A stretch of DNA of 64,000 bases from Candidatus Woesebacteria bacterium RBG_16_42_24 (GCA_001792115.1 MGFX01000001.1:5847-69846); one strand, 5' to 3'; numbered from the stretch's first letter, positions 2,874-62,069 are shown. The notes: generated from the sequence alone by a model not told the origin. Made by a program: numbers and translations.

Positions 2874-2888
2874 TAGATTACAAAGTTA

Positions 2889-3321: not shown

Positions 3322-3478
3322 ACCCCCAAGATAACCCAATATTGAGGCTAAATAAGCCGCATAACTGTAATTTCCGCTTTTTAATATCACTCTTATTTTA
3401 CTCAAAATCTACGCACTCGTGCCTAATAATTAGAGGGTTGACAACTTACTTAGATAATAGTTATATATAATTAAATCT

Positions 3479-4129
3479 ATGCAGGATACTTCAGAATCTT
3501 TAATTATGCATTTATCAATTGGAAAAGCTTCAAAGTATTTGGGAGTTTCAATAGACACCTTGCGAAGGTGGGAGAAGAAAGAAAAGATATCTTCTCATCG
3601 TTCCCCCGGCGGCCACAGATATTTTCTAAAAGAAGACTTAGATCAGGTATTCCGCCCAAAAAAGAAGGAGAAGCCCAATCTAGTCACAGAGGCACCGATA
3701 CAGGATCGTCAGGAATACACACCACCCAGTCTTCCTGAAGCCCCCCAGCCACCCATAGAGGCCGAAATTAATATACCGGTCAACGAGCCTTTAAGTTGGC
3801 AAGGTTCCGAACCTTCTGAAACTCCTCAAGAGGAACCTCTGGTTCTTAACGAATCTGTCTCCGTCGAAGTACCTACGGCTCCTTCCTACCAACCGCCCTA
3901 CGTTGAGGAAATCCCATCAACTCCCGCCCCTACAGCCGAAGCACAATCATCCAATAGCGAAGAGACTCTCCTTTCGATTAAGGAAAATATCATTGGGAAG
4001 TTACCCCAGAAGCGCACAGTAACAAAAATATATTTTATCTTTCTGGGTCTTTTTCTACTGGTCGACGCATTCCTGTTCTTTTACTGGGTGGGACTTAAGG
4101 GCAATAGTTTCCTCTCTCCCCTTCCTTAG
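3479..4129 (+). CDS. MerR/excisionase-family HTH protein with a Pro-rich linker and a C-terminal TM anchor
   Basis: N-terminus LSIGKASKYLGVSIDTLRRWEKKEK matches excisionase/MerR-type HTH_17. The C-terminus IYFIFLGLFLLVDAFLFFYWVGL is a predicted TM helix. Confidence 0.6.
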   Translation: MQDTSESLIMHLSIGKASKYLGVSIDTLRRWEKKEKISSHRSPGGHRYFLKEDLDQVFRPKKKEKPNLVTEAPIQDRQEYTPPSLPEAPQPPIEAEINIPVNEPLSWQGSEPSETPQEEPLVLNESVSVEVPTAPSYQPPYVEEIPSTPAPTAEAQSSNSEETLLSIKENIIGKLPQKRTVTKIYFIFLGLFLLVDAFLFFYWVGLKGNSFLSPLP

Positions 4130-5913: not shown

Positions 5914-5966
5914 AATTGTAGGTTACCAGAAAATTAGGATATCAGGAATAGAGACTAGAATATCAG

Positions 5967-6365
5967 CTAATTAGGTTTTTTTAGATTTGCTTGCTTTTCT
6001 TTAATATAGTTGATAAATCCATTTATTCCTTTAATTAATCCCTCATAGCTTTCGATAAGTTCGTCTGTCCTTTTTGGCAACAAGTATCTTTTCCCCTCCA
6101 TTTTTCTTAAATGGCTTTGCGTCTCTGCGGCTTCTCTCCTGGCCAGATAAAAAGATTTCATCTTGTCATTGTAGTAATAGGTTGAATAACCTTCGGCTAT
6201 GGCATCAACCACTGAAGATGACGACCTTTCGGCTTGATCTTGTATTCGAAATTTTTCCTCTCTGGGTAAAACTCTACAAATTTCGTGTATCTGAAGCATT
6301 AGCTTGTAGGCAATCTGCCATATTTGAAGTTTCTCAAACCCCACCCGAGTTCTCATTTTGTGCAA
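5967..6365 (-). CDS. Four-helix-bundle protein of the 23S rRNA intervening-sequence protein family (TIGR02436/PF05635-like), copy 1 of 3
   Basis: The 132-aa sequence has the family hallmarks (..QIHEICRVLPREEKFRIQDQAERSSSSVVDAIAEGY..YYLARREAAETQSHL). Flanked by GATATC-type repeat arrays. Confidence 0.7.
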   Translation of the reverse strand: MHKMRTRVGFEKLQIWQIAYKLMLQIHEICRVLPREEKFRIQDQAERSSSSVVDAIAEGYSTYYYNDKMKSFYLARREAAETQSHLRKMEGKRYLLPKRTDELIESYEGLIKGINGFINYIKEKQANLKKPN

Positions 6366-6470
6366 TTATCTGTTCTCCTGATATCCTAAATCCTATCCCT
6401 GATCCCCTAATATCCTGGTATCCTAACTCTGATACCCCGCTAATCTGATATCCTCTGTCTTTGTCTCCCC
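6366..6470. repeat. Low-complexity repeat array (CTGATATCCT / ATCCTAA units). Inverse counterpart AGGATATCAGG...GAATATCAG lies at 5930-5966 on the other side of the four-helix-bundle gene.
   Basis: Direct reading: cctgatatcctaaatcctatccctgatcccctaatatcctggtatcctaactctgataccccgctaatctgatatcct. Confidence 0.5.
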
Positions 6471-11338: not shown

Positions 11339-11388
11339 GGTGTTAACTTAAAACTCAAATGTCAAAACTCAAAAGTATATCTAAAAAC

Positions 11389-11790
11389 TCAAAACCTTCT
11401 GTTTTTTAAAGTTATAATGCTCGATCCGAGCATCTTTGAAATCTCGTCAACTTCTCTTAATAGAGAATCGACTTTTACTTTGTCAAGGGAAGTTGTATCA
11501 CGAAGGAGATTCAACCAATAATTAGTTTCGTTGGCCGATTTTAAAGCTATCTCGTAGAACTTTATGAAATCCTTTCGAGAACTCGATGCCTTTGCCTCAA
11601 TTACGTTTGCACCGATTGAAGTAGCACATCTTAAAAGTTGATCTGAAATAATCCTATTAGATCTTTTAGTGGGCAGGGAATCAATAAAAGTGATTATATT
11701 TATTGAAAACTGGTAGCTACGGTGTCTTAAATCAGTTTTAAGATTTGAGTTCAAATTTTGAACTTTGAGTTTTGAGTTTTGAGATTCCAT
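11389..11790 (-). CDS. Four-helix-bundle protein (23S rRNA IVS protein family), copy 2. The true start is probably downstream of the repeat-encoded N-terminus.
   Basis: ..LLRCATSIGANVIEAKASSSRKDFIKFYEIALKSANETNYWLNLL.. typical of TIGR02436. The N-terminal MESQNSKLKVQNLNSNLKT is encoded by (TTTGAGTTTTGAG)n repeats. Flanked by inverted arrays: AAAACTCAAA x3 at 11340-11388 and TTTGAGTTTT x3 at 11745-11790. Confidence 0.7.
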   Translation of the reverse strand: MESQNSKLKVQNLNSNLKTDLRHRSYQFSINIITFIDSLPTKRSNRIISDQLLRCATSIGANVIEAKASSSRKDFIKFYEIALKSANETNYWLNLLRDTTSLDKVKVDSLLREVDEISKMLGSSIITLKNRRF

Positions 11791-11794
11791 ATAT

Positions 11795-15354: not shown

Positions 15355-18300
15355 TTACCCTCCTTTTTTCTTCTTTTTATTTAAAAACGATAAATATTTT
15401 GAAATAACAGGCAATGCCAACAAAAGAATCAGCGTTTTCTCGGGTACTACGGCAAATTCAAAATTAGTCCCTTCCCTCAATACCACGCCTATTTGTGAAC
15501 TTCCCGCACCACTTAAGGGACCGGAAATCTGCCCCAAATGATCTGCGCTACCGCTCCATCCCCAATCACTTTCACTCCCCCAGAAAATAGTTGTCGCGTC
15601 AGTTGATTTTAGATATGCCTTCTCATTAGTATCCTTGATTACGCTCGCGTAAAGATCTGAATTTGACGAATCGTAAGTGATTGTAGCCGAGGTAATATTT
15701 GTTTGGCTTGTCCACGGATCTGGCTCATCCGTCCAAGTAGGAAGGCAGTCCGCCGTGTCACAATCCGCAAAATAAACAGGGGGCTGGCTGGATTCCAAAG
15801 CATCATAATAAACAAGCTTGCAGTTCGTCGAGGATGGACAAGCAAGAGCAGATCTGGTCGGTGGATTTTCCAAATCAATAACGCTTCCAGAGGCACAAGC
15901 CGCACTATCGCAGTCGAAAAAATATTGATCTTCAGGGGAGGCTGTATTTCCTACATAAACTCCCTTACAATCATTTGCTCCATTACTACAATCAAGATCA
16001 ACGCCAAATGTAGTTAAACCTCCCGCAGTATCATCAATTTTGGTTATGGTATAATTGGCAGACGTGCAAGTTGCATCTCCGCAATCTACAAAATTAAATT
16101 CAAGCTGGCTTCCGTCCGCATAGATTAATTTGCAGTCAGTTGCCCCCGGAGTACAATCAATTGCGTTGGGAACATTAACTGAGGTTCCTCCAACATCCGT
16201 ATCGATATCAAGCTCGGTTCTGGAAGCACAAGTCGTAGAGGCGGTGCAGTCAATCAATGTAAGATCTCCCTCAACTGCGTCATGGTAGAGTATTTTGCAA
16301 TCATCTGCCGCAGGGCACCAAATAGAGTTTTTTGCATTTGAATTTGTTGTATTAATATTTAAAGAAATAGCAGTTAAAGCATCTCTCGTCGAACAGTTCG
16401 CATTTGAGCAGTCAGCAAACCATAAATCGTCAGTATCGTCTTCAAAAAAAACAACTTTGCAGTCAGTATCCCCCATACAATATAAAGAAGTGTTAGGCTT
16501 AGAAGTACTACCTCCCAAATCTCCATTGATATCCCCCTGGCTCGGAGCAGAACAAGTTTCATCATTACAATCTATAAGACTCACATCAGGACTATTTCCT
16601 CCTAAAAGATCCCCGTGTGCGATCTTACAATTGTTAGAAGTTACGCAAAATAAGGCTGGTGAAGGGGCATTAGTTGCGCTTCCTGTATCGGAATCTATGA
16701 CCCTTGGAGTACCGGAGCCAAAAGTCGAACAGTTTTCATCATCGCAGTCGACAAACACAAGATCAGGCCCAGCAGTTTCTAGGTTATCCACATAAACCAC
16801 TTTACAATTAGCCGGATCAGAAGTTGGACACCAAATATCCATTTCTGTATCTTGTTCGTCTCCGGATGAACCTGTGTCTGAGTCTATTAAAAACTCTGCA
16901 ATGTCTGCGGTACAACAGGAATAAAGTCTTGTATTTTGGTTAGTCGAAGTGTCAACGCTTAACGCCCAAATATTTGTACCGTCAGTAGTTACCGAGTAAA
17001 TAGTGTCTGTAACTGAACCAATGGTTTGATTATTCCTTCTCCATTCATCTCTCGAAGCATCATACTTGGCAAATGAAAGGTCTGTTCCGTCCTGAAACAC
17101 AACGGCAGCACTGGTTGCATCAAGTCCAACCAAGACCGGCCTATCTCCCGAAGTTAAACCAGCCCCTTGTGTTCCAAAGGTTACATTCCCAGTAACAACT
17201 GAGGTTGTGTTTCCGCTGCAAGACCCATCTAGACCCGCAATCTCAAAAGCGTTTATCTCAGCATCTCCACCGGTTGTATCCGAATAGGCGATGAGAACGC
17301 TAGTATCTGAAAACTGGGCAACTGAAGTCATAAACGTATTTCCAATAGCCCCAGCCTCTATGCTGGTCTGGCAAAGGGTTCCCTGTGCATCAGAACTTGC
17401 AGTATCAATTCGACGCCCTTCTGACCTATCTGCTCCATCATCTATCCACCAAACATGGATTATATTGTTGGAAACAGCTATTGAGGGATTATAATTATCT
17501 GTATCTCCGTCATCCACAGTAACCGCCGGATCCCAAGACAGCCCGTCTGAAGATTTCTTAAAAAAGATTCTTCCCCCCGTTGAGGCAGTACACGTTACTG
17601 CGTCGCAGTTATAAAATGCGTACCAGTTTCCATTTACATAGGCTACTTTCCTTTGCAGCCCGCCGTACTGAACTTCCCCTTCCTCTATTCCTCCAGAAAC
17701 TATTACCGAAGGATCGATTGAAATTGGGAAAACTCGCTCTTTCGCCGAAAGCCATGAGCCAAAATTTTGGCCAAAACTTTTTATAAGTCTATAGCCTATT
17801 TTGTCTTTCTCTAAACTAAAATCAATATCGTAGCTCACCTCGCCCATTGCATCTTTGGCAAAGGGTTGGGAAAACTTAAACAATTCCTCCCCTTCTTTAC
17901 TATAAAATCCAAAAGCTTCTGAATTTGGCGATACTATTTTTACGTCTGTGGTTTTCACAGATTGTATTATCGAAGCAGATGAGGAAAGTGAAGAGGAATC
18001 CTTTAATATAAATTCTTCAATCAATACATTACCTGCAATAGAATATTTTAAATCAACACCCTCAATTACTTCCTCATAAACAACTTCTTTATTTGAATAT
18101 ATTTTTGATTCCGAGGGAAAAGCTTTCTTGCCACCAATAGATAAAGTCTCAAATTCTACTTCACGACCATCGGCCTTAATTCTTACTCTGGGCTCTTTAT
18201 GGAATATAAACTCTATCTGTTTACCGCTCTTGGCGGTTTTAACAATCGCTCTTGGCGTGTCAATCTGGCGTGTAGAAGCATTTTTTAAAATTGTCTCTTT

Positions 18301-21195
18301 ATTGGAAGGATTTTTTGCCTCTGTAACTTCGTCGGAATGTGAAGCACTCAATAGATCCTGGGCTGTTCTAAGGTTTGGTTCTGAGGCGTAAGCAAGGTTG
18401 GATACTGGAATAAAGGGAGAAATAGCGGCCAAAATTGAACTCAGTGACAAAAGTAGGGATAAAGCAAAGTTCCCAAGTTTTCTTTTATTTCTCGGCAAAA
18501 TTCTGAAGTTGTCAAAGCGAGAGTTGGCAGTAGCCAGGGATAGATAAGGGTTTAGGGAGTTAGGGTTTAGCCTGCCTGCCGGCAAGGCAGGGGTATTGGC
18601 ATTAGGTTTTAGACTAAACCCTAGACCCCAGTGCCTAGCACCTAGTGTCTGCAAAGCAGGTGCCCTTCCGGGCAAAATCCCTGATATGAATCTGTAGAAT
18701 CTGCCCCTGGTAAAGATGTCTGTGATACGTCCTGTCTTGGGGGTTCTAAACCAAGGTCCTTCGCTTTTTTCCAGGAAACCTTTTAAGGAGGCGTAGGCTT
18801 GGAAGGGAACGAGAATGTAGGATAATGCCACAAATGAGGCAAGACCTGCATAGTCTTTTTCTTCCGACTCCTCAAGAAATAGTCCCACGGCATTCATTAG
18901 AGGTAGGGCCAGTAAGTTGGTTAAGACCAGACTCCAGCCCCAGAGCTCTGTCCAGAAGGGCAGGTGGGCTCTAAAGACGGTTTCAGAGACAAGCCAGGAG
19001 AGGGTTCCCACCAGGAAGAAGAAGGCCTGGAGGTAGTAAGGGGAAAGGTAAAGGAATTCGAGCTTTTCACTAAAAGATAGAGGGGAAGGAATCCAGCTCT
19101 TTGACGATGGAGGATGGGGGGTAGAAGATAGTGGTTGAGGATTGAGGTTAGAAGATTGACTTTCTACCTTCAAACTTCTACCTTCTACCCCCACATTCAA
19201 TCCTCTACCTTCTACCGTCGAATCTTCCCAGTGTCCAAACATCAGTCTCACAAACATCCTTTTAATGTTGTTTGAGTGTCCTTCTGCCCATCTCATTCTT
19301 TGCCTGACTAGTCTTTTAATGGTGGAGACACACTCGGCAGGGGCTTGGATGTAAGGGGTATAGACCACTTTGTAGCCAGCTTCGTAGAGTTTTAGGGTCA
19401 GTTCAAAGTCCTCGGTGATTGAAGTTTCCCAGCCTACTTCTTCTAAGACATCTCTTCTGATCATATAGACCGATCCTGAAATCTGTTTAAGGCCTGAATA
19501 GATTTCAGTTCCTGAACGCTCAATGACGTATGAACCGGCATACTCACTCCTTACTCCCCTGGTTATCCAGTTCTCGGACTTATTTAAGACGTGCCACTGG
19601 TAACCTTGCACCGCAGCTATGCGCTGCCCGTGATCCGTAATTTGTAATTCGTCATTCGCAGTTTTATTCGGTTTACTATTTACGGATGACTGTTTACTTT
19701 TGGCGAAGTCTAACGAGCCTGCAGTTACCTGGAAGTACTTAAGGAATAGTGTCAGGGTGTCAGGATACGGTACAAAGTCTGCGTCAAAGACAGAAACGAA
19801 TTCTGCCCTGGGGTCTGTATGGATTAGAGCCTCCCTTAATGCCCCACCTTTAAACCCCGAGCGGGAGGTCCGATGCAGGTGCTTAACTATTACTCCCGGG
19901 GCTACCTCTACCGAGCTTAACGTCCAGCCCTCCCCCCCTCTGAATTTGGAATTTGGAATTTGGAATTTTCCAAGATAATCAGAGATTATCTTGGATGTCC
20001 CATCTGTCGAGTCGTCGCAGAGAATTACCTCATACTCTCCTTCATAGTCAAAGCTGGTTGAGGCGTTGATTAGTCTTTCAACTACATTCTTCTCGTTATA
20101 AAGGGGTATATGGATGGAGATAAAGGGGTGTCTAGTTAGTCTTACATGCTCAAGGTTTGCTTCCAGTCCTCCGGCTTTTGTCAAATTAGCTTGTTTCTTG
20201 TCGTTTGCCTTCCTGCCACCCAGACCCAAAAGCCAAGTCAATAGACTTTTTCCTCTGGCTTCAATCCCAATTTCACCTTCCCCTTTTCCTTCTTGGCTGA
20301 ATGACAAGACTAGTGCCAAAGTTAGATAGTATTTAAGAGAGTAGAGGAAGAAAACTGAACCTATCAAAAGAGCAACCGTGGCAAAAAAAAGTCCAGCGCT
20401 ACCCATACCTGCTTTTTCGGCAGTTGTTACCACATACCCAAAGAACCCAGTTAAGAAGATTGTTGCCCCAAAAGAAAGAGAAAACGCAGTCAATATTCTG
20501 ATTACTTTCTTGCGAGTTTCGTGGGAAAGTGCAAAAAACTGCCCTACTCTCCCTAAAACGGCCGCGATTGTCCTTATCTGTGGAGTGATTTGGCCTTGAG
20601 CGAATAAGAATCTTTTTTCAAAAGTAGAAAGGTCGCTCCTTCTAAGTATGTTCTGCACCCCATGATGGCTAAGGATAGGGTGAACCCCGACCTTGGGAAG
20701 ATTTTGAACTATTTTTCTAACGCCGTACTTAGGATATTTAGAAACTAGAGACTTAACGGCCTCTTCGTATAGCTGGGGAGCCTGTCTAAAATACCTTTTA
20801 ACCTGCGGAATTTGATCGCTAACGGCCATTATCCTTTTATCCGGCGCCAGTTGATACCTTTTGATCCACTTATAAATAGTGTTTCGAGAAACTTCGTATT
20901 CTTTGGCAAGCGAAGATATATCTTTTTCTTTAGCTAAAGCAGCCTCAACCATCCTGAATCTCTCGAGAGAAGAGAGTTTTCTAAACACAATTTTCTTTGG
21001 GGTTTGAGATTTTCGAGGTCGGCCTCCGATCTTAAAACTTAATCCATTCTCTCCATACCTTCTATATCTATTCAGCCATCTATAAAAAATCGTGCGTGAG
21101 ATTTGATACTTTCCACAAATAGAAGATACGCTCTCACCTTCAAGAGCTCTTTTAATAAGCTCAATTCTTTGCTTAGCTGAATATTTAGGCTGCAT
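15355..21195 (-). CDS. Giant 1946-aa fusion protein: transposase-type HTH domains, TM, processive family-2 glycosyltransferase (DxD, QRMRW) with post-catalytic TM bundle, signal-anchor, extracellular Asp-box (BNR) region, seven ~45-aa Cys-rich repeats, and a C-terminal PEP-CTERM-like sorting tail (VVPEK-TLILLLALPVISKYLSFL-NKKKKKGG)
   Basis: HTH: SVSSICGKYQISRTIFYRWLNRY and ISSLAKEYEVSRNTIYKWIKRYQ. GT2: ILCDDSTDGT, VFDADFVP, RLVRQRMRWAEGH. Asp-box SSDGLSW. Repeats of the form C..NCK[VLI][VI]Y....[FL].DC....C seven times. Tail compared with the PEP-CTERM consensus VPEPSTLALLGLGLL..RRRK. Confidence 0.8.
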   Translation of the reverse strand: MQPKYSAKQRIELIKRALEGESVSSICGKYQISRTIFYRWLNRYRRYGENGLSFKIGGRPRKSQTPKKIVFRKLSSLERFRMVEAALAKEKDISSLAKEYEVSRNTIYKWIKRYQLAPDKRIMAVSDQIPQVKRYFRQAPQLYEEAVKSLVSKYPKYGVRKIVQNLPKVGVHPILSHHGVQNILRRSDLSTFEKRFLFAQGQITPQIRTIAAVLGRVGQFFALSHETRKKVIRILTAFSLSFGATIFLTGFFGYVVTTAEKAGMGSAGLFFATVALLIGSVFFLYSLKYYLTLALVLSFSQEGKGEGEIGIEARGKSLLTWLLGLGGRKANDKKQANLTKAGGLEANLEHVRLTRHPFISIHIPLYNEKNVVERLINASTSFDYEGEYEVILCDDSTDGTSKIISDYLGKFQIPNSKFRGGEGWTLSSVEVAPGVIVKHLHRTSRSGFKGGALREALIHTDPRAEFVSVFDADFVPYPDTLTLFLKYFQVTAGSLDFAKSKQSSVNSKPNKTANDELQITDHGQRIAAVQGYQWHVLNKSENWITRGVRSEYAGSYVIERSGTEIYSGLKQISGSVYMIRRDVLEEVGWETSITEDFELTLKLYEAGYKVVYTPYIQAPAECVSTIKRLVRQRMRWAEGHSNNIKRMFVRLMFGHWEDSTVEGRGLNVGVEGRSLKVESQSSNLNPQPLSSTPHPPSSKSWIPSPLSFSEKLEFLYLSPYYLQAFFFLVGTLSWLVSETVFRAHLPFWTELWGWSLVLTNLLALPLMNAVGLFLEESEEKDYAGLASFVALSYILVPFQAYASLKGFLEKSEGPWFRTPKTGRITDIFTRGRFYRFISGILPGRAPALQTLGARHWGLGFSLKPNANTPALPAGRLNPNSLNPYLSLATANSRFDNFRILPRNKRKLGNFALSLLLSLSSILAAISPFIPVSNLAYASEPNLRTAQDLLSASHSDEVTEAKNPSNKETILKNASTRQIDTPRAIVKTAKSGKQIEFIFHKEPRVRIKADGREVEFETLSIGGKKAFPSESKIYSNKEVVYEEVIEGVDLKYSIAGNVLIEEFILKDSSSLSSSASIIQSVKTTDVKIVSPNSEAFGFYSKEGEELFKFSQPFAKDAMGEVSYDIDFSLEKDKIGYRLIKSFGQNFGSWLSAKERVFPISIDPSVIVSGGIEEGEVQYGGLQRKVAYVNGNWYAFYNCDAVTCTASTGGRIFFKKSSDGLSWDPAVTVDDGDTDNYNPSIAVSNNIIHVWWIDDGADRSEGRRIDTASSDAQGTLCQTSIEAGAIGNTFMTSVAQFSDTSVLIAYSDTTGGDAEINAFEIAGLDGSCSGNTTSVVTGNVTFGTQGAGLTSGDRPVLVGLDATSAAVVFQDGTDLSFAKYDASRDEWRRNNQTIGSVTDTIYSVTTDGTNIWALSVDTSTNQNTRLYSCCTADIAEFLIDSDTGSSGDEQDTEMDIWCPTSDPANCKVVYVDNLETAGPDLVFVDCDDENCSTFGSGTPRVIDSDTGSATNAPSPALFCVTSNNCKIAHGDLLGGNSPDVSLIDCNDETCSAPSQGDINGDLGGSTSKPNTSLYCMGDTDCKVVFFEDDTDDLWFADCSNANCSTRDALTAISLNINTTNSNAKNSIWCPAADDCKILYHDAVEGDLTLIDCTASTTCASRTELDIDTDVGGTSVNVPNAIDCTPGATDCKLIYADGSQLEFNFVDCGDATCTSANYTITKIDDTAGGLTTFGVDLDCSNGANDCKGVYVGNTASPEDQYFFDCDSAACASGSVIDLENPPTRSALACPSSTNCKLVYYDALESSQPPVYFADCDTADCLPTWTDEPDPWTSQTNITSATITYDSSNSDLYASVIKDTNEKAYLKSTDATTIFWGSESDWGWSGSADHLGQISGPLSGAGSSQIGVVLREGTNFEFAVVPEKTLILLLALPVISKYLSFLNKKKKKGG
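19621..19700. repeat. In-frame 75-80 bp MITE-like insertion inside the GT2-coding region of the giant gene. It is made of left-end-like and right-end-like sequences of the 21205-21665 four-helix-bundle cassette, and is absent from the paralog at 1121-1180.
   Basis: ccgtaatttgtaattcgtcattcgca resembles cgtaatccgtaatctgtcattcgtca (21214-21239). tcggtttactatttacggatgactg resembles tcggattacgatttacggatgacgg (21638-21662). It adds ~20 aa (..SKPNKTANDELQITDHGQR..) without breaking the frame. Confidence 0.55.
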
Positions 21196-21204
21196 TGGGC
21201 AGGA

Positions 21205-21665
21205 TTTAAGTTCGTAATCCGTAATCTGTCATTCGTCACCCGGATACAAGCTCAGATTACGAATCGTCATCTTTTTTTCTTTTCTCTGTTGAACGTATCA
21301 ACCCACTTATTAACTGAAATCCTTGATTTATTTTGTCTATTAAAGATTGAAATTCATCACCTGTAAGGAAATTTAGGTCTTTAGCTAATATAAGAAAATT
21401 TTGTACCTCTGCGTTTGAGCCACGAGCCTGATAATAAAAACGTATCTTATCAGCGAAATGATATCTCCCCCAGCCTTCCGCTATGTTGGCAGTCACAGAA
21501 GATGCCGCCCTTCGAAGCTGGTCAATAAGACCAAATCTTTCACTATTAGGGAATTTCCTCGTAAGTCTATAAATGGCGACAGCCACATCGTGGTTAACTC
21601 TCCAAGCATCAAGATCAGAAAAATGCATGTTTTTCTTCGGATTACGATTTACGGATGACGGATTA
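21205..21665. mobile_element. Small cassette carrying four-helix-bundle gene copy 3, bounded by related ~26-bp terminal sequences. Candidate non-autonomous IVS-like mobile element.
   Basis: Left end TTCGTAATCCGTAATCTGTCATTCGTCACC (21209-21240) plus internal inverted copy GATTACGAATCGTCATC. Right end GGATTACGATTTACGGATGACGG (21640-21662). A deletion derivative of both ends lies at 19621-19700. Confidence 0.5.
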
Positions 21666-21670
21666 TTCAT
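21257..21670 (-). CDS. Four-helix-bundle protein (23S rRNA IVS protein family), copy 3
   Basis: ..WRVNHDVAVAIYRLTRKFPNSERFGLIDQLRRAASSVTANIAEGWGRYHFADKIRFYYQARGSNAEVQNFLILAKDL.. matches the TIGR02436-type family. Confidence 0.75.
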   Translation of the reverse strand: MNNPSSVNRNPKKNMHFSDLDAWRVNHDVAVAIYRLTRKFPNSERFGLIDQLRRAASSVTANIAEGWGRYHFADKIRFYYQARGSNAEVQNFLILAKDLNFLTGDEFQSLIDKINQGFQLISGLIRSTEKRKKDDDS

Positions 21671-22224: not shown

Positions 22225-22295
22225 ATATTGGCTGTGGACCCGCCGGGAATTGAACCCGGTCCTCCGCAATGCGAATGCGGTGTTCTACCGGTATA
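22225..22295 (-). tRNA. tRNA-Ala (anticodon CGC)
   Basis: Minus-strand sequence GGGCCCGTAGTATACCGGTAGAACACCGCATTCGCATTGCGGAGGACCGGGTTCAATTCCCGGCGGGTCCA. Acceptor with G3:U70, anticodon stem CCGCA/TGCGG with loop TTCGCAT, T-arm GGTTCAATTCC. The D-stem is imperfect. Confidence 0.55.
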
Positions 22296-22309
22296 CTACG
22301 GGCCCCGCT

Positions 22310-22440
22310 TACGGGTCTGCGCAGCTCAAATTATATCAGATTTCGGTATTCCAGTATTCTAGTCAGACGGTGTACCGGTTAACCGGTCAACTGGTTTACT
22401 GACTTACCGGAATACCGGGTTACTGGACTACTGGATTACT
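22310..22440. repeat. Low-complexity array of TACCGG/TACTGGA-type units
   Basis: ccggttaaccggtcaactggtttactgacttaccggaataccgggttactggactactggattactgaag. Confidence 0.4.
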
Positions 22441-22448
22441 GAAGTTAT

Positions 22449-23595: not shown

Positions 23596-23700
23596 ATTTA
23601 ATGTCCAATTGCCAATTTCCAATTTCCAAATAAATCAAAAGTTTCAAAATTCGAATTTATAAATTAACTGGAGACTGGAAACTACTATTTTAGGCTACTG
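23596..23700. repeat. AT-rich intergenic repeat element (CCAATTTCCAAATA...AATTCGAA...AATTAACTGGAGACTGGAAACT). Related copy at 39585-39680.
   Basis: Shared blocks between the two loci by direct comparison. Confidence 0.4.
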
Positions 23701-34552: not shown

Positions 34553-37135
34553 CTATTTAAGAAGCTTCTTTATTGCCTCGTTGACATATTTTATTTCTCT
34601 TTGAGTAATCGGTCTTATCAGCCCCAACCTTCTTGCCTCTTTCACCCTTTTATCTTGTGCAACAACCTCCCTAATCTCGCCTAATAATCCGACCTCCCCC
34701 AGTGCCAGGCTGCCTTTGGGTAAGGGTTTATCAAAAAACGATGAGGCAATAGCAAGACAAATGGCCAAATCACTTGCAGGCTCCACTACTTTGATACCTC
34801 CGGCAACGTTTACGAAAACGTCGTATTCGTATAAAGGTAACCCGCACCTTCTGATAAGAACGGCCAACAGAAGCTCAAGCCTCCTTGAATCAACGCCCTG
34901 GGCTACCCTTTTAGGAAAAGGCATTTTGGAAGAAACAACCAGAGCCTGAATCTCTACCAAAAGCGGCCTTGTGCCTTGAAGAGTGGAGGTAACCACGCTT
35001 CCAGCTACATCCATATGCTCCCTGGAAATAAAAATCTTTTCTACGTTTGTTTCCGGAATTAATCCTTTATCCTCCATCTCGAAAATTCCCACCTCATCGG
35101 TTGGACCAAAGCGATTCTTGACTGCACGAAGCAGCCTCAAGGTCAGAGACTTGTCTCCCTCAAACCACAAGAGAGTATCGACTATGTGGGCAAGAACCGC
35201 TGGACCGGCGACTGTGCCTTCCTTGGTAACGTGTCCCACCAAAAATAATGGAATATTTTTTTCTTTTGCGATCCTTAAAAGCCTAAAGGCGCACTCGCGA
35301 ACCTGCCCAACGCTCCCCGCCAACCCGTTTAAATCCTCTGTAGTCATTGTTTGAATCGAATCCACTACCACACCTTTAAGGGTTGTTCCTTTAAAGGTAG
35401 ATGTTGTTTCGACCACGGAATCTACATCTGTCTCCTCCAAAAGACTTATCGAATTTTTCTTTATTCCGAGCCTTTCGGCTCTTACTTTTATCTGACTCCC
35501 CGATTCCTCTCCGCACACATATAAAACGTCGCCGAGTTTATCTGCGAGCTGAAGAAGGAGGGTAGAGTTGTGACTAACGATTCCGTTGGTAACCAGTGAA
35601 TGTGTTTTCGGTATACACAGATCAAAACAGACTGAATTACCCATATCTGCTACACTCTCCACTTTATCCCAATAAAATTGGGGCTCGAGTAATACTCTAA
35701 GCTCGGGAACATATCTTGCTATTTCTTTCAATTTTTTATAACTCGCAGACCGCATTCCCCTTAAATAGCGTCTATCCCAACGATGATCACTAGGAATTCT
35801 TGACAGATCTATAAAAGGCAAATGCGGAATTACATCTAAATTGCTGTTAGATAATTTAGAAAGTAATCTCATACTATTCTGTTTTCGGCTTAATCTAAAA
35901 CCAATCTCAGAGTAGAATAGCCTCGCACTGTCGCCGAGAAGTTGAAGAATCCATGCTCCTTGCTTTTTGTTTTTGCGAAAACGCAATTTCCCCACAATAC
36001 CAAATTGAAGCAAAACAAGATGGACCTGCTTTGCTAGTTGTTTTGAGGTGGTGCAATACTCAATTACACCTGGCATACTGCCACCACTTTTAGAATTAGA
36101 AGATCCGTCTGTATCAAATAAACCTTGTAAAAAGGCTCTCACAATCTGTTTTGGAGCAGAAAGAATTAATTCTGGAATACTCTTCAATTGCGCACGAACG
36201 GAAATAAAACCGATATGCCTAAGCCAAAGGTGGAAAAGACGATTATTAACTGACAACCTATATCTAAGAATGCCAGTCTTTAAACCTAAACTAGATATCC
36301 AATTTTCAAAATTTTCCTTAATTTCCGAATCTGCAGTAGTAAGGTTTACGTGTCCAAAATCAGTCAAACCTCCATCTCCAACCAACAAACCTAGACAGTA
36401 AGCCATATTCTTATCTATCTTTTTAGGAAAAATTGGCACGACTGCGTTGGTATTGATCCTAAATTTGAATGGGGGCAAGGAAGTGTTGTTGCCCCAAATA
36501 GCATCATGCCTTTGGATAGCAACATAGTCACCAACTCTTATTTGTTCCATGTTCTTCCAACTCTTTTTACCTTCCTGCGAAAGTGTCAGAATGGGATGTG
36601 TATATGTCGCCTGGAGTTCATACCCCATCCGAGTAGTAATTCGTTTCGTAATTTGTTCGTCGCTGGTATAAAAATGGCTCGTTTCTTGCAATCCATTAAG
36701 GGATTGAACGGCTATTCGTAATTCAACAAATCCTTTATTAGCATTTTTAGGTTTTAATTTCTCAATCGAAACGAGACCTCGCTCAGTTGGAATTAACGTA
36801 TCGGCAGCTACACATTTGCCAATACCTGGCTCTCCTGCAATAAGAACAACCTGACCAGGCACAAGCCCGCCACCCAAAACCCTATCCAGTTCTGAAATTT
36901 TAGTAGAGATCCTCGCAGTTGATTTTGAAGGGATGGAAGAAAGTGAAACAGGGTTTTTCTTTATACCTGTGCTACTTTTACTACCTTTTCTACCTCTACT
37001 ACTCTCTGTCGAGACTATTGTTTCAACTAAACTCCCCCAGCTTCCACAATTGGGGCATTTCCCAGCCCAGCCGACTTGAGAATAGCCGCACTGTTGGCAG
37101 ATGTACTTAGAATGAGGCTTGGCCATTTCGGCCAA
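34553..37135 (-). CDS. radA: DNA repair protein RadA/Sms, interrupted in the P-loop by a 416-aa intein
   Basis: Zn-finger CQQCGYSQVGWAGKCPNCGSWGS. Walker A split GEPGIGK|C...HN|STLLLQ. The C-terminal Lon-like domain is intact. Confidence 0.85.
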   Translation of the reverse strand: MAEMAKPHSKYICQQCGYSQVGWAGKCPNCGSWGSLVETIVSTESSRGRKGSKSSTGIKKNPVSLSSIPSKSTARISTKISELDRVLGGGLVPGQVVLIAGEPGIGKCVAADTLIPTERGLVSIEKLKPKNANKGFVELRIAVQSLNGLQETSHFYTSDEQITKRITTRMGYELQATYTHPILTLSQEGKKSWKNMEQIRVGDYVAIQRHDAIWGNNTSLPPFKFRINTNAVVPIFPKKIDKNMAYCLGLLVGDGGLTDFGHVNLTTADSEIKENFENWISSLGLKTGILRYRLSVNNRLFHLWLRHIGFISVRAQLKSIPELILSAPKQIVRAFLQGLFDTDGSSNSKSGGSMPGVIEYCTTSKQLAKQVHLVLLQFGIVGKLRFRKNKKQGAWILQLLGDSARLFYSEIGFRLSRKQNSMRLLSKLSNSNLDVIPHLPFIDLSRIPSDHRWDRRYLRGMRSASYKKLKEIARYVPELRVLLEPQFYWDKVESVADMGNSVCFDLCIPKTHSLVTNGIVSHNSTLLLQLADKLGDVLYVCGEESGSQIKVRAERLGIKKNSISLLEETDVDSVVETTSTFKGTTLKGVVVDSIQTMTTEDLNGLAGSVGQVRECAFRLLRIAKEKNIPLFLVGHVTKEGTVAGPAVLAHIVDTLLWFEGDKSLTLRLLRAVKNRFGPTDEVGIFEMEDKGLIPETNVEKIFISREHMDVAGSVVTSTLQGTRPLLVEIQALVVSSKMPFPKRVAQGVDSRRLELLLAVLIRRCGLPLYEYDVFVNVAGGIKVVEPASDLAICLAIASSFFDKPLPKGSLALGEVGLLGEIREVVAQDKRVKEARRLGLIRPITQREIKYVNEAIKKLLK
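35567..36814 (-). mobile_element. Intein (416 aa) in radA with a LAGLIDADG homing-endonuclease domain
   Basis: Intein N-terminus Cys (CVAADTLI) directly after GIGK. C-terminal ...VSHN followed by the +1 Ser of the extein. LAGLIDADG motifs AYCLGLLVGDGGL and FLQGLFDTDGS. Boundaries computed from codon counts and checked against the DNA (tgt at 36812-36814; aac at 35567-35569). Confidence 0.8.
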
Positions 37136-39518: not shown

Positions 39519-39584
39519 CTCAAATATAATTTGTACTCTCAAAACTGAAGAGAAAAGCCATCTCTCACGCTCCGCGTGAGAATT

Positions 39585-39680
39585 TCCAATTTCCAAATAC
39601 CAAATTCCAAATAAATTCTAAATTTCTAATTTCGAAATTCGAAAATTAAATGGAAACTGGAGACTGGAATCTGGAAACTC
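39585..39680. repeat. AT-rich repeat element in the 23S-5S spacer (AATTTCCAATTTCCAAATACC...AATTCGAA...TGGAGACTGGAA), followed by the hairpin CTCGTGCGAGGCACGAGAG
   Basis: Direct comparison with 23596-23700. Confidence 0.4.
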
Positions 39681-39815
39681 TCGTGCGAGGCACGAGAGAA
39701 TAGTTTTCTTCGACCGATTCGCACAGGTAAGCTTAAACCCTTACGGGTCTTCCACATCCTGCCGATTAACCCCGTCTTCTTCGGGGGGTCTATAACGAGT
39801 CCTAATCTTAGGGGG

Positions 39816-39979: not shown

Positions 39980-40830
39980 CATAATTGTTACTAATGGCTA
40001 GCCAATTTACATTCTTGCTAGCTCCCACGATCACCCGTGGGGTCCGACCATATCTTTCCGCCCGCAACTGCGTAGCTGTTGGCGGATCTGGCGTATGGCC
40101 TGTGAGGATTCTAGTTTTGATAGTCTTGGAGTATTTTTTCTTTTAATACCCTTCTTTTTTGAGTATTCATAGAATAAGCAATCTCCAAAACCTCCGTTAT
40201 ACCTTCTTTGGTTAAATGCGCTTTATCAGCAACTAACTCAATTACTCTTTTGAATTTTTCAAAAGTTTGTTGCTTAATATGCAATTTACCCTCAAAGAAA
40301 GGAATAATTTTATCTCTTAAACTAGGCAAATCTCGAACAACATATGCCAAAGATTTGTCAGTTCTATCTATCCGACTATTTTGTTTTACATAACCACAAG
40401 AAAATCTTTTTTGAAAGTACTCCAAAACCCCTCTTCCCGAAGGATTTTGAGAGACCTTAAAAAAATAGATTACTTGCCAACCGGTCTTAGTTTCAGGTGA
40501 ACGAACAATACCTATATAAAACATACCTTCACCTTCCACAAAACCGACCAAATAGTCATCTGATATATGAGATTGAAAACTAGCCTTTCCTGCTGATGAT
40601 CTCAGGTTTGACATTTTTACTAGTATATTACATATGTACTAGTAGTCAAACATTAACGAGACTTTCCAGCATATAGCCAGATTTATATCCCTTCATTTTA
40701 CTCCCCACGCTTCGCGCGGGGACCCCGGGCTATCACTCCGAGGTGTTTATGGACAAAAAGTTTTAATTCCACACTCAATGTATATTCAATACGTCTAAAG
40801 GGCGAGACCGCTTGGACTTGTCACTTTGAT
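39980..40830 (-). mobile_element. Group I intron in 23S rRNA, inserted after GAGACAGTT (near E. coli position 2593, the I-CreI-type site), encoding a LAGLIDADG endonuclease
   Basis: Exon sequence stops at ...gtctcacgacg/cagttgac (40858) and resumes at ccaccggatagagtccga (39962-39981; RC TCGGACTCTATCCGGTGG = E. coli CGGTCCCTATCTGCCGTGG). About 850 nt of non-rRNA sequence lies between. The boundaries are approximate to within 20 nt. Confidence 0.65.
40111..40614 (-). CDS. LAGLIDADG homing endonuclease (single-motif, I-CreI-like size) encoded within the 23S group I intron
   Basis: 167 aa with motif DDYLVGFVEGEGMFYIGIV (the LAGLIDADG equivalent). Confidence 0.75.
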   Translation of the reverse strand: MSNLRSSAGKASFQSHISDDYLVGFVEGEGMFYIGIVRSPETKTGWQVIYFFKVSQNPSGRGVLEYFQKRFSCGYVKQNSRIDRTDKSLAYVVRDLPSLRDKIIPFFEGKLHIKQQTFEKFKRVIELVADKAHLTKEGITEVLEIAYSMNTQKRRVLKEKILQDYQN

Positions 40831-41490: not shown

Positions 41491-42914
41491 CTTCGCTACC
41501 GTAGAACAGTTATAGTTACTGCTGCCGTTTACTGGAGCTTAAGTTCAGAGCCTAAAAGCCTTGCGGCCTAAAGACCCCTCCCCTTAACTTACCAGCACTG
41601 GGCAGGCGTCAGCCCCTATACCGTGCCTTTCGGCTTCGCAGGGACCTGTGTTTTTGATAAACAGCCGACTAGTAAACTTTTGTTGCAACCCCGATATAAT
41701 CGGGGCAACCCATCTTCCAAAGTTACGGGTAACTTTTTTGCCGAATTCCTGGAACATCCTTCTCTCGCTCACCTTAGTCTTCTCGACCAACCCACCTGTG
41801 TCGGTTTGCGGTACGGCTTAATCTAAATCTCACTGCGAGCCTTTTATCTGAAATTGAATAAAGTAAAATTGCCCCACTTTCATAGGACTCTGCATCACTG
41901 CTCAATTAATCAGGAAAGCGGATTTCCCAGCTAACCCTATTTAACAGCTTACACCAGGCTTCACCTCCTGGCCTTACTCATCCATTTTCGTCAGCCCCCA
42001 GCTATCATGCTTGCGCATGCACCTTGCGGTGTAACGATTTAAACTAAATAGCAGAATTTTGACTGCTCACCCATCGACTACGCCAATTGGCCTCGCCTTA
42101 GGTGCCGACTAACCCGTCGTGGACGAACCTTGCGACGGAAACCTCGGGTATTCGGTGTCCCAGATTCTCACTGGGATTGTGCGCTACTCATACCGGCATT
42201 CTCACTCCCATGCGCTCCACCAACCCTTACGGGTCAACTTCACTGCACATAGGACGCTCCCCTACCACTATCGCCTTGCGGCGTAATCTTTGTCTTCGGC
42301 ACTACCTTTATCCTCGATACATCTTGGGCGCTAACCTTCATCGACCAGTGAGCTGTTACGCTTTCTTTAAAGGGTGGCTGCTTCTGAGCCAACCTCCTGG
42401 CTGTTTCTGAAAGTTAACTTCCTTTTAAACTTAAGGTAGATTTAGAGGCCTTAGACGAAAGTCTGGGATGTTTCCCTCTCGCCATATCAGCTTAGCCCGA
42501 TATGACTGTCTCCCGCCCTAATTAGACTTATGTCTTCGGAGTTTGGTTAGACTGCCTCCCTTGCGGTTGGTAATCCATCCAGTGCTCTACAACATAAGCC
42601 GAAAAGGCGAGACGGTCCCTATAGACCTTTCGGGGAGAACCAGCTATCTCCGAGTTCGATTAGTATTTTGCCACTATCCACAGCTCATCCCAAGTCATTG
42701 CAACGACTACGGGTTCGGGCCTCCCTCAATCTTTCGATTAAGTTCACCCTGGCCATGGTTAGATCACTCGGTTTCGGGTCTGTCATATCACACTTATTTC
42801 GCCTTTTAAGACTCGCTTTCGCTGCGCCTCCCCCCGGTTTACGGGGTTAGACTTGTGTAATAAGACAACTCGCCGGTTCATTCTTCAATAGGCACGAGAT
42901 CACTCGCGCGCAGC

Positions 42915-43025
42915 GCGAGAAATTCCTAAATTTTTAATTTCTAATTTCTAAATAATTCTTAAATTCTCAAATTAATAAATTGGGATTTAATTAGAAATTA
43001 GGTCAATTAGTAGTTAGAAATTCCT
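42915..43025 (-). other. AT-rich intervening sequence / expansion segment within 23S rRNA (about 600-700 nt from the 5' end, helix-25 region), flanked by GC stems
   Basis: cgcgcgcagcgcgag-[aaattcctaaatttttaatttctaatttctaaataattcttaaattctcaaattaataaattgggatttaattagaaattaggtcaattagtagttagaaattcc]-ttgtgctacgcacaag. The composition and AATTTCTAA units match the dispersed intergenic repeats elsewhere in the window. Confidence 0.55.
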
Positions 43026-43104
43026 TGTGCTACGCACAAGCTCTCTCGGCTTGTTAGCAAACAGTTTCAGTTTCTATTTCACTGGGTGTCTCACCCTTCT
43101 TTTA

Positions 43105-46071: not shown

Positions 46072-48207
46072 ATGCATCACCTGACCACACTTCTACTTAA
46101 ACTTCCTCGTAACACCGAAGTTACACCCGAAGCCGCCCAAACTTTTTTGGCGGCCCTCACCCAAATAAACTCCGTGGGTTTTTTGCAAAGACTTTTTGGG
46201 GCCCGTTCCCAAGCTCTTTCCCTGGAAATTGTCCAAATAAACCAGCAAATCCAATTTTTGGTTACTTGCGATACAGCTCTTGTTTCTTTCGTCAAAACCC
46301 AAATTCAATCAAATTATCCATTGGCAATAATTGACGAAATTCCCGATCCACTTGCTACCAACCCAAAACTACATGTTTCCACCCTTAAGTTATCAAAAGG
46401 AAGCTTTTATCCTTTAGCAACCTTTGCCAACTTTACAGACGTTGATCCGCTGGCTTCGGTTCTCTCCGTTCTTGCAAAATCCACCCCCGATGAGCTGGTA
46501 GCCGTCCAATATGCACTCGAATCGGTTAGTCCCTCCTGGCAAACCCAAGGGGCAAACTACGCCGCTTACGGGGCTAAGAAAGAGGACGGCACTTATTCCC
46601 CACGTGAGGACCAAAGTATCATAAAAGAGAAAATTTCTTACCCAGGCTTTGCTGTTTCTCTCCGACTTGCAGCTACTTCGAATGAAACCCTAAGGGAGCT
46701 TGCTTCCGCCTTCGGGGTTTTTACAAGAGCCGACGGGAATTCTTTCTCGACCAAAGGTCGCTCTTTCCTGAGGAAAACTAAACCCTTAATAGATTTTTTG
46801 TCGCGAAAAGTTTCCGGTAATCAAATCATGAACATATTAGAACTTGCCACCGTCTGGCATTTGCCTTCCGAAAAAATAAAAACACCTATGATTGCCTGGG
46901 GTACAAGTGTCCTTTCAGACCCTCCCGAAAACCTTCCTACTTCCTACGGTGCAACGGATGAGGATAAAATGGGCATTAACTTCTTTGGTAAAACACAGTT
47001 CAAAAATAACGAGGTGATCTTCGGAATTAAGGATAAAGACCGCCGCCGCCATCTCTGGAATATTGGAAAAACCGGAACCGGAAAATCGACCCTAATTGCC
47101 AATATGGCAATCGACGATCTTAAAAAAGGACGGGGTCTGGCTGTCATTGACCCCCACGGAGACCTTTGTGAAATAATCCTCGACTATATTCCTCGCGAGC
47201 GGATTAACGACGTCGTCTACTTTAACCCGGCAGATAAGGATTATCCAATTGTAGTAAATCCACTTGAGGTAACCAATAAAGAAGAGGCCGAACTCGTGGT
47301 CTCCGGAATAGTATCGATATTCAATAAAATCTTTGGATTTTCCTGGGGACCCCGACTCGAATATATCTTAAGGACTACCCTTTTAACCCTAGCCGATGTG
47401 CCCAACTCCACCCTAAAAGATGTACCTATGATATTAACAGTTCCCGATTTTAGACGAAGGATAACAGACAAAATCACCGACCCGATCCTTAAGTCTTTCT
47501 GGGTTGACGAGTTTGAGAAAATGCCGCCCAATCTTCAGAAAGAGGCTATCTCCCCTATTCTTAACAAGGTTGGCCAGTTTGTTACCTCACCCCTAATTCG
47601 AACAATCATCGGCCACCCCAAAAGCTCTATCCGTCTAGATGACATCATGAATGAAGGCAAAATCCTACTTGCCAATCTTTCCCAGGGTCGACTGGGAGAG
47701 GATAACGCGGCACTTTTAGGAGCCATGCTTATTACCAAACTTCAGCTTGCCGCGATGCACAGGGTCGATATGCCGGAAGAATCCCGCCGTGACTTTTACC
47801 TCTACGTCGACGAGTTTCAAAACTTTGCAACCGGATCTTTTATTAAAATCATGTCAGAAGCAAGGAAGTACCGACTAGATATAATGCTCGCCAACCAATA
47901 TATGGCCCAGATCCCGGAAGAGGTACAAAAGGCAATACTGGGAAATGCAGGATCTATTATGTCTTTTGCGGTGGGAGCAAGCGATGCTTCAATTCTTTTT
48001 AAGGAATTTGCGGAGGTTTTTTCCGAAACAGACTTGGTGAATCTTTCCAACTACCAGGTAGCCTGTAAATTGACCGTCGACGGCTATTCAACCAGACCCT
48101 TCCTGGCCTATACCCTACCCCTTCCTATCTCCCGAAATCAAAATCGGGACAAGGTCATTCGCGTCTCCCGCGAACGCTGGACAAAAAGAGGTCCCCACAC
48201 TGTTTGA
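46072..48207 (+). CDS. Cytoplasmic P-loop NTPase of the TraD/TraG/VirD4-coupling-protein or HerA (DUF87) type
   Basis: Walker A GKTGTGKST, VIDPHGDL, Walker B FYLYVDEFQNF, LANQYMAQIP. No N-terminal TM segment. Lies antisense within the 16S-23S spacer. Confidence 0.75.
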   Translation: MHHLTTLLLKLPRNTEVTPEAAQTFLAALTQINSVGFLQRLFGARSQALSLEIVQINQQIQFLVTCDTALVSFVKTQIQSNYPLAIIDEIPDPLATNPKLHVSTLKLSKGSFYPLATFANFTDVDPLASVLSVLAKSTPDELVAVQYALESVSPSWQTQGANYAAYGAKKEDGTYSPREDQSIIKEKISYPGFAVSLRLAATSNETLRELASAFGVFTRADGNSFSTKGRSFLRKTKPLIDFLSRKVSGNQIMNILELATVWHLPSEKIKTPMIAWGTSVLSDPPENLPTSYGATDEDKMGINFFGKTQFKNNEVIFGIKDKDRRRHLWNIGKTGTGKSTLIANMAIDDLKKGRGLAVIDPHGDLCEIILDYIPRERINDVVYFNPADKDYPIVVNPLEVTNKEEAELVVSGIVSIFNKIFGFSWGPRLEYILRTTLLTLADVPNSTLKDVPMILTVPDFRRRITDKITDPILKSFWVDEFEKMPPNLQKEAISPILNKVGQFVTSPLIRTIIGHPKSSIRLDDIMNEGKILLANLSQGRLGEDNAALLGAMLITKLQLAAMHRVDMPEESRRDFYLYVDEFQNFATGSFIKIMSEARKYRLDIMLANQYMAQIPEEVQKAILGNAGSIMSFAVGASDASILFKEFAEVFSETDLVNLSNYQVACKLTVDGYSTRPFLAYTLPLPISRNQNRDKVIRVSRERWTKRGPHTV

Positions 48208-61958: not shown

Positions 61959-62069
61959 TTTTTCTCACCCCCATCCGCTTCGCGGAAAATCCAAAATTCT
62001 AATTTCTAAATCCAAATTATTATTTTGAGTTTAGGATTTTGAACTTGAGATTTTCCCAACTTTGTTGGG

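Follow-up and report, generated by a model that had tools for sequence, protein, structure and literature searches.

The closest described systems to the element examined here are the intervening sequences (IVSs) of 23S rRNA that carry an open reading frame (ORF), known from Leptospira, Coxiella and Xanthomonas, in which a gene of the S23p / 23S_rRNA_IVP family lies in the loop of a long inverted-repeat stem. In the Coxiella IVS the S23p ORF is directly preceded by GACAGAT heptamers, two or three depending on the strain, and RNase III cleaves the stems of characterised IVSs (PMC4990558). The idea of IVS mobility is itself already known, as proposals of 1990-1993 regarded the IVS and its ORF as a transposition remnant or mobile element (cited in PMC4990558). 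The protein family PF05635, for which RxxxSxxxNxxEG is the family motif (PMC3936711), is also that of Avd, the accessory protein of diversity-generating retroelements (DGRs; PMC10053308), and 23S_rRNA_IVP has been reported to be associated with clustered regularly interspaced short palindromic repeats (CRISPR; PMC3936711, PMC10910872). Here we analysed a 64-kb stretch of DNA (the window) in which three four-helix-bundle genes of PF05635 lie in cassettes between inverted arrays of tandem heptamers, and in which a short block at 19629-19696, within the coding region of a giant gene with a family 2 glycosyltransferase (GT2) domain, resembles the two ends of one of these cassettes. On balance we consider it probable that this block is a decayed, ORF-less derivative of the arms of cassette 1, which lies 1.5 kb upstream and is of a widespread module type. 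Homologs and context place the organism of the window, which comes from aquifer metagenomes, in the Patescibacteria, probably in the Microgenomates group; a cyanobacterial origin, first suggested by the heptamers, was ruled out by homolog taxonomy and rRNA operon features.

Like the ORF-bearing IVSs, the window cassettes hold a gene of the same family in the loop of a long inverted-repeat stem, and the window also carries a helix 25 IVS of heptamer build. The cassette architecture is that of an ORF-bearing 23S IVS, but outside rRNA, as the three window genes and all 80 Patescibacteria loci surveyed below lie outside rRNA (none of the 80 within a 23S gene), while the 23S IVS of the window has no ORF. 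A second likeness is to the repetitive extragenic palindromic (REP)/REPIN systems, in which inverted short palindromic repeats flank a single gene for the REP-associated tyrosine transposase (RAYT), a demonstrable tyrosine transposase, ORF-less copies are scattered and the repeat type follows the protein lineage. The cassettes share with them a gene flanked by inverted repeats, ORF-less copies and co-variation of repeat and protein, whereas the cassette protein is a four-helix bundle without a known catalytic site and the arms are tandem 7-nt arrays in place of a single palindrome of ~35 nt. Rickettsia palindromic elements (RPEs) resemble the heptamer inserts in that they occur both in RNA genes and, in frame, in protein genes, where they fall in linkers or at the surface, but RPEs are conserved families of 100-150 nt with many copies and no associated gene, while the heptamer units here are short, variable and tied to a gene, with one copy of cassette 1-type arms seen. 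The heptamers of cyanobacterial short tandemly repeated repetitive (STRR) sequences likewise form tandem, often inverted arrays that are intergenic or within structural RNA helices, and the cyanobacterial four-helix-bundle genes examined have such flanking arrays. STRR sequences, however, were described as cyanobacterial and without an associated gene, whereas here the arrays are tied to PF05635 genes in a Patescibacterium host. No paper linking STRR heptamers with PF05635 genes was found in the literature searched and, apart from the Coxiella observation, none generalising the link between gene and heptamers was found in the searchable literature.

Four-helix-bundle cassettes with heptamer ends

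Gene 1 (21257..21670, minus strand) matched PF05635 with E 3.4e-34 (117.7 bits; curated cutoff 33.8) and TIGR02436 with E 3.9e-32 (110.7 bits; cutoff 24), and gene 2 scored 92.9 and 106 bits against the same two models. The family motif is present in gene 1 as RRAASSVTANIAEG, with S58, N62 and E65 invariant and R54 nearly so among 30 sequences, and the solved structure closest to its product by sequence similarity is 2GSC (E 1.4e-18). Homologs of gene 1 begin ~4 residues ahead of HFxDL and its true start is probably the ATG at 21628 (M15), so that the upstream arm would fall in the leader. This upstream arm, CCGTCAT-CCGTAAA-TCGTAAT-CCGAAG on the sense strand (21636..21665, minus strand), and the downstream arm, GGTGACGAATGACAGATTACGGATTACGAA (21211..21242, minus strand), were located by repeat and pattern searches and pair with one another in the minimum free energy (MFE) and centroid folds. 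The ends of cassette 1 are inverted tandem arrays of a 7-nt unit (nCGTAAT / nCGTCAT), not conventional terminal inverted repeats (TIRs), and the downstream arm ends 16 nt ahead of the ATG of the giant gene. An earlier note on this DNA had described a small cassette holding the four-helix-bundle gene between two defined inverted ends; its end strings were placed at 21211-21240 (left) and 21638-21662 (right) and the discrete unit was confirmed.

Two further cassettes of the same build were found in the window, both on the minus strand. Cassette 2 (11345..11793), identified by array and domain searches, has its gene at 11389..11790 between inverted AACTCAA / TTGAGTT arrays (11345-11395, 11734-11793), and its fold pairs both ends with a z score of -3.9. 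Cassette 3 (5925..6452) has its gene at 5967..6365 between inverted GGATATCAG-type arrays (5925-5966, 6373-6452); the gene was recognised by hmmsearch with a profile built from the homolog alignment (E 1.6e-27), and the fold again pairs both ends (z -2.6). The repeat units all differ, being CGTAAT in cassette 1, CTCAAAA in cassette 2 and GGATATCAG in cassette 3, and in all three the arms pair with each other over the full ORF in the MFE fold. All three PF05635 genes of the window are enclosed by inverted arrays, and the window as a whole contains 17 period-7 arrays in comparison to 1, 4 and 1 arrays of periods 6, 8 and 9, period 7 being characteristic of this genome. The cassettes encode the four-helix bundle only and are neighboured by genes for a peptidase, rho, GT2, sensor kinases and regulators; neither domain searches nor PADLOC models gave a reverse transcriptase, transposase or defence gene adjoining any of the three, and no homolog of the four-helix-bundle protein was present in the phage collection.

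Match of the block in the giant gene to cassette 1

The giant ORF (15355..21195, minus strand) encodes two N-terminal helix-turn-helix (HTH) domains, membrane segments, the GT2 domain and a long C-terminal region, and hosts three heptamer blocks. The block treated here is in frame in this ORF, and its translation, roughly 'AKSKQSSVNSKPNKTANDELQITDHG', falls between the GT2-domain stretches FLKYF and AAVQGYQWH. The earlier note had placed left-end-like and right-end-like strings in it at roughly 85% identity to the cassette ends, and all four quoted strings were indeed present at those places in the window, the left-like at 19635-19660 and the right-like at 19669-19693, starting 8 nt after the left-like. 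A repeat search of the window bore out the similarity with 88% identity over 26 nt (19629-19654 versus 21213-21238) and 86% over 35 nt (19662-19696 versus 21631-21665). Together with pattern matching (exact for the upstream arm) and alignment, these matches delimit copies of both arms, that of the upstream arm including ~10 nt of leader from the cassette interior (CAGTCATCCGTAAATAGTAAACCGAATAAAAC; 19662..19696, minus strand) and that of the downstream arm reading CGAATGACGAATTACAAATTACGGATCACG (19629..19658, minus strand). Degenerate patterns fitting both copies matched only these two loci in 64 kb with 3 mismatches allowed, against 0.00 and 0.02 matches expected by chance from dinucleotide shuffles.

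Read on the minus strand, the one that codes for host gene and cassette gene alike, cassette 1 has the order CCGTCATCCGTAAATCGTAATCCGAAGAAAAAC-ATG...ORF...GGTGACGAATGACAGATTACGGATTACGAAC and the block, in the same orientation, CAGTCATCCGTAAATAGTAAACCGAATAAAAC-TGCGAATGACGAATTACAAATTACGGATCACG. The order of variant units common to the two is GTCAT-CCGTAAA-TnGTAAn-CCGAAnAAAAC followed by CGAATGAC-nnATTAC-nnATTAC-G, and includes a non-repeat leader of ~10 nt (CCGAAnAAAAC). When the block was compared to the arms of 82 cassettes, cassette 1 was the top match with a score of 45, the next scoring 34 and the median being 21.5. The irregular unit order, the non-repeat leader and this rank together argue for common descent of block and cassette. 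Between the two arms of the block complementarity is 83% over 18 nt, and the block folds no better than shuffled sequence (z -0.8 and -1.0 for the two strands), which indicates a decayed copy of the hairpin.

Linker sites of the giant gene

In the alignment of GT2 orthologs, three hypervariable linker sites coincide with the three heptamer blocks. Linker site c, after RMRWAEGHS, holds a second in-frame heptamer hairpin of GGTAGAA units (19100..19220, minus strand), which is strong (19095-19225: -45 to -50 kcal/mol, z -3.9 and -4.3); it is absent from about half of the orthologs, and others have different heptamers, such as GGAATTA / TCATTCA in the ortholog at locus L097. Site a, after DDSTDGT, holds a third in-frame array of four direct GGAATTT units (19936..19974, minus strand; array search). 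In one Microgenomates ortholog the place of the block is taken by a strong palindrome unrelated to it (GTCATTCTGAGCGAAGCGAAG...; -57 kcal/mol). In an AlphaFold model of the GT2 region, residues 163-181 (the block) and 322-354 (site c) have a predicted confidence (pLDDT) of less than 50 in comparison to 83-93 in the core, and the block is accordingly modelled in a tolerant, predicted disordered linker that has repeatedly accepted palindromic or repeat DNA. The earlier view of the block as an in-frame, ORF-less copy of both ends in a loop agrees with its unit order, orientation and low pLDDT. The likeness of the block to RPEs stands in so far as it is in frame in a tolerated linker; as to a stable hairpin, its arms are complementary but its fold is no better than shuffles, and the insert at site c is a strong hairpin.

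The giant gene was represented by seven contigs from other samples, of which 6 were 100% identical and 1 was 99.8% identical to the window, with no length difference and the ORF intact in all. No four-helix-bundle gene was found upstream of the giant-gene orthologs in the five loci inspected, two of which had short upstream sequence, which indicates that the position of cassette 1 is lineage-specific.

Two side observations concern the same protein. The FLKYF-GYQWH linker of the Microgenomates ortholog L122 contains an in-frame palindrome (GTCATTCTGAGCGAAGCGAAGAATCTC...GGTCGCTTCGCTCCCTCAGGATGAC) encoding 'SVILSEAKNL...SVASLPQDD', which is of another repeat family at the same protein site as the block. 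The giant protein and many of its orthologs also start, over the N-terminal ~190 aa, with two transposase-type HTH domains (HTH_28, HTH_Tnp_1, HTH_32) that are fused to the membrane GT2; in L097 a separate gene encodes the HTH part.

Cassettes in Patescibacteria genomes

With an alignment of 30 homologs as query, a search of genomes, one for each species, yielded 80 loci, nearly all from Patescibacteria metagenome-assembled genomes, and 79 of these were usable. Period-7 arrays occurred in the 160-nt flanks of 67% of the 79 loci in comparison to 0-1% for periods 5, 6, 8, 9 and 10, and within the same loci array density was ~5 per kb at up to 100 nt from the gene ends versus 0.05-0.5 per kb elsewhere, an enrichment given overall as 20-50 times. 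The flanks were reverse-complementary, with a median score of 38 versus 18 for mismatched locus pairs, and inverted similarity exceeded direct similarity in 73 of the 79. The upstream unit of the subclade reads nnGTAAn on the sense strand, and the three closest fetched relatives of gene 1 (70-71% amino acid identity) have arms of CGTAAA/CGTAAT type. Across all pairs, arm similarity correlated with protein identity (Spearman 0.50, reached by 0 of 999 permutations), which argues that arms and ORF are inherited as a unit.

Arrays lacking a gene were also found around these loci. For 59 solo period-7 arrays, the cassette of the same locus ranked first among the 79 in 6 cases (0.75 expected) and within the top five in 14 (3.7 expected); examples are an array with the cassette unit that is in frame in the next gene, in a linker rich in proline and threonine (L080), and another in the gene after next (L016). 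This preference of arm-like arrays for their own neighbourhood suggests short-range copying and not random transposition. At L008 (780-960) the upstream arm and a 9-nt leader (CAATTTTAT) are tandemly duplicated, showing that arm-plus-leader units can be copied locally. In most loci the arm ends just 5-10 nt ahead of the start codon. By analogy with characterised IVSs, strong hairpins of this kind would be RNase III substrates when transcribed, and cleavage so close to the start codon would release a nearly leaderless mRNA.

Cassettes on plasmids of other phyla

A tblastn search of plasmids returned 49 records, mostly cyanobacterial, from which 12 loci were inspected, belonging to Cyanobacteriota (Nostocales, Pseudanabaena, Picosynechococcus, Stanieria), Azospirillum (Alphaproteobacteria), Riemerella (Bacteroidota) and Gemmatirosa (Gemmatimonadota). 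In all 12 the gene was flanked on either side by tandem arrays of 7-8-nt units, in direct orientation in three and inverted in most. Three Nostocales plasmids share 78-81% homology over ~400-427 nt bounded by the outer arm edges, with unrelated flanking DNA. Several of the plasmid four-helix-bundle genes are wedged inside cas operons, and those of the Anabaena sp. 90, Pseudanabaena galeata and Picosynechococcus PCC 7003 plasmids (L103, L104 and L105) lie co-oriented between cas6/cas4 or cas10/cmr3. The plasmids of Anabaena sp. 90 and Dolichospermum UHCC 0315A are 98-99% identical in cas6 and cas4-cas1, and at the cas6|cas4 junction the former has an 849-nt segment in which the gene lies between ~290 nt of (GGTGACA/GGGAACA)n and (TGTCACC)4, whereas the latter has an unrelated 273 nt without a cassette. 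A corresponding difference is seen in Pseudanabaena: P. galeata carries a cassette of 712 nt, and the spacer of 50 nt found at this position in strain ABRG5-3 is itself (AATTACG)4. The two proteins found at the cas6|cas4 junction, those of Anabaena sp. 90 and Pseudanabaena galeata, are just 44% identical, which argues for independent arrivals at the same place.

In summary, the module is a long inverted repeat with a PF05635 gene in its loop and with arms built of tandem 7-nt, sometimes 8-nt, units, and arms and ORF are gained or lost together between genes. The claim of the earlier note that the family leads a mobile-cassette life is upheld to the extent that the family behaves as an insertable cassette, both in the Nostocales homology that ends at the arm edges and in the presence or absence of the 849-nt segment between nearly identical plasmids. 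As a separate observation, the 273-nt insert of Dolichospermum (L112:1237-1483) ends in inverted repeats, GTAGGTTGGGTT...AACCCAACCTAC, and looks like another small palindrome-ended element.

Origin of the block and competing explanations

In a derivation of the block from cassette 1, the ORF would have been lost internally and arm sequence copied nearby, without a change of orientation, into a linker that was hypervariable before; gene conversion, template switching or transposition over a short distance may account for the copying. Being in frame and stop-free, the block would then have survived and decayed. Arms lacking an ORF persist as solo hairpins or arrays; in the window these lie in helix 25 of the 23S, in the spacer that leads to the 5S, in gaps between genes and in disordered linkers of the giant protein, and inside genes only stop-free, in-frame versions can survive. 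The four-helix-bundle protein may act on its cognate repeats.

A number of observations weigh against this derivation or its wider frame. The likeness of block and cassette owes much to the unit consensus of the whole subclade, as unrelated cassettes reach 34 where cassette 1 reaches 45. A second ORF-less copy of cassette 1-type arms was not found in the 64-kb window, and a scan with the arm TCATCCGTAAATNGTAANCCG gave 7 chance hits in unrelated contexts, without repeats or gene, in a metagenome collection that evidently lacks the source organism, so that this count is not genome-wide. No direct repeat abutting the arms of block or cassette 1 was seen by eye, the boundaries being somewhat fuzzy, and no empty-site allele of the block occurred among the 7 population contigs. 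The earlier note took the block to add ~20 aa to a loop; the FLKYF-GYQWH linker has 42 aa in the window and 19 aa in the shortest orthologs, but the closest ortholog also has 42 aa there, of unrelated, non-heptamer sequence, and the block therefore looks like a replacement in a hypervariable linker and not a clean insertion. In the arms of the surveyed loci, wobble-type mismatches numbered 99 for the sense and 110 for the antisense strand (p 0.49), with no sense G.U excess, and duplex energy favoured the sense strand in 44 and the antisense strand in 34 loci (p 0.07); in view of this lack of strand asymmetry, selection for an RNA stem is not demonstrated, and arm complementarity seems to be kept at the DNA level, for example by inter-arm copying, rather than by RNA-stem selection alone. 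The cross-phylum sample is small (12 loci, plasmid-borne only), and we know of no catalytic activity for the four-helix-bundle fold.

The earlier note had interpreted the block as a non-autonomous derivative of the cassette that resembles a miniature inverted-repeat transposable element (MITE). In its classical form this explanation makes the block a deletion derivative mobilised by a transposase for which the cassette ends serve as TIRs, with many dispersed copies elsewhere in the genome. Both ends of the longer element are indeed kept in an ORF-less form, close together and in the right relative orientation, and cassettes are gained and lost as arm-bounded units. The ends, however, are cassette-specific tandem arrays without a TIR consensus; no transposase adjoins any of the three cassettes, a look by eye for target-site duplications at block and cassette 1 revealed none, and there was neither an empty site among the 7 population contigs nor a further end copy in the window, the metagenome hits being due to chance. 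Arm units also tend to spread locally and not at random. By the refuting condition of the earlier note itself, a MITE in the strict sense fails on the available data, and we regard the classical form of this explanation as unlikely. Copying through RNA, in which an Avd-like protein and a reverse transcriptase encoded elsewhere would copy arm RNA into nearby genes in the manner of DGR homing, would fit the shared fold and family of PF05635 and Avd (PMC10053308), a weak DivGenRetAVD match and the preference of arm sequence for neighbouring, mainly downstream genes. No reverse transcriptase lies near any cassette, though, and the DivGenRetAVD score of 25.1 bits is far under the cutoff of 80; a DGR as such was rejected on these same two results, and retro-copying appears very improbable to us.

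Two other explanations do without a relic of cassette 1. Were the block a selected RNA element of the giant-gene mRNA, for instance a target of RNase III or a hairpin for regulation or pausing, it would have company in site c of the same mRNA and in the precursor of the rRNA, both of which contain strong hairpins of like build, and in the IVS stems cut by RNase III (PMC4990558). Its fold is nevertheless no better than shuffles (z -0.8 and -1.0), arms show no G.U excess on the sense strand and orthologs have unrelated sequence at its site, and we give this explanation little credence. Alternatively, two nearby arrays of a favoured heptamer may have arisen independently by in situ slippage from a small unit vocabulary, as units do recur at unrelated loci in the window (TTGAGTT at four places, TTTCTAA at four) and the block also obtains fairly high scores with cassettes that have CGTAA units but are unrelated. 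Slippage would have to reproduce an irregular unit order and a ~10-nt leader for which chance expects 0 matches, with the window's own cassette 1 as the top match of 82, and such a coincidence is extremely unlikely. Descent of the block from the arms of cassette 1 by local copying is thus the reading that we retain.

This analysis joins three puzzles, namely the role of the IVS protein, open since 1993, the nature and spread of IVSs, and the nature of tandem heptamer repeats of STRR type. A PF05635 gene and its inverted heptamer arrays form one heritable gain-and-loss unit in at least five phyla, and the interest lies in this consistent cross-phylum association, no description of it having been found in the literature searched. 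Arms without an ORF occur in rRNA helices, spacers and protein linkers, and Patescibacteria proteins acquire disordered linker segments from heptamer repeats. The co-occurrence of 23S_rRNA_IVP with cas genes should be read with caution, as the CRISPR association may be an insertion-site effect that reflects site preference and not function. A far broader conjecture, which we put forward tentatively and consider possible but doubtful, is that PF05635 proteins are the dedicated partners of an unrecognised class of heptamer-ended, insertable hairpin cassettes, each lineage acting on its cognate heptamer in RAYT/REPIN fashion. ORF-less descendants of such cassettes would be the common origin of ORF-less IVSs, STRR repeats and in-frame palindromic inserts in Patescibacteria proteins, and the CRISPR-Cas association would reflect cassette insertion at operon junctions.

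Other heptamer hairpins and features of the window

An ORF-less insertion of 124 nt (42913..43036, minus strand) lies in helix 25 of the 23S rRNA, between Rfam LSU positions 583/584, and is predicted to form a TTTCTAA/TTAGAAA heptamer hairpin with a G+C-rich base (fold z -7.2). From sequence and predicted fold it is an IVS, being an extra stem-loop at the tip of helix 25, which with helix 45 is one of the two classical IVS sites. A hairpin built like it (39561..39699, minus strand; -63.7 kcal/mol, z -9.2) separates the 23S 3' part from the 5S rRNA. The array search also identified two intergenic, ORF-less heptamer hairpins, one of TTGGAAA units between an M23 peptidase gene and rho (23597..23683, minus strand) and one of TTTCTAA / TCAAAAT units at 61975..62052, which was not assigned to a strand. 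A palindrome of 100 nt made of 8-nt units (ACCGGTTA / ACTGGATT) at 22342-22443 is directly beside tRNA-Ala(cgc) (22234-22305) and folds much better on the plus strand (-51 kcal/mol, z -6.8) than on the minus strand (-36 kcal/mol).

The rRNA operon (39394-49813) is unusual in that 3.7 kb split the 16S gene from tRNA-Ile/tRNA-Ala/23S, and this gap carries an opposite-strand ORF (46072..48207) with matches to TraG/TrwB/HerA-like ATPases. The 23S gene is itself interrupted by a LAGLIDADG ORF (40111..40614), presumably within an intron, with the 23S 3' part at ~39700-40080. A KaiC/RadA/DnaB-like ATPase ORF at 34553-37135 has an intein containing a LAGLIDADG domain. Finally, a region of ~3.2 kb (300-3479) in an otherwise gene-dense genome is free of ORFs >85 aa in all frames, gave no match to Rfam models at E<=0.01, and contains three direct repeats of 24 nt (TGTTACC..CCATACTAAC) at 2890, 3050 and 3303.

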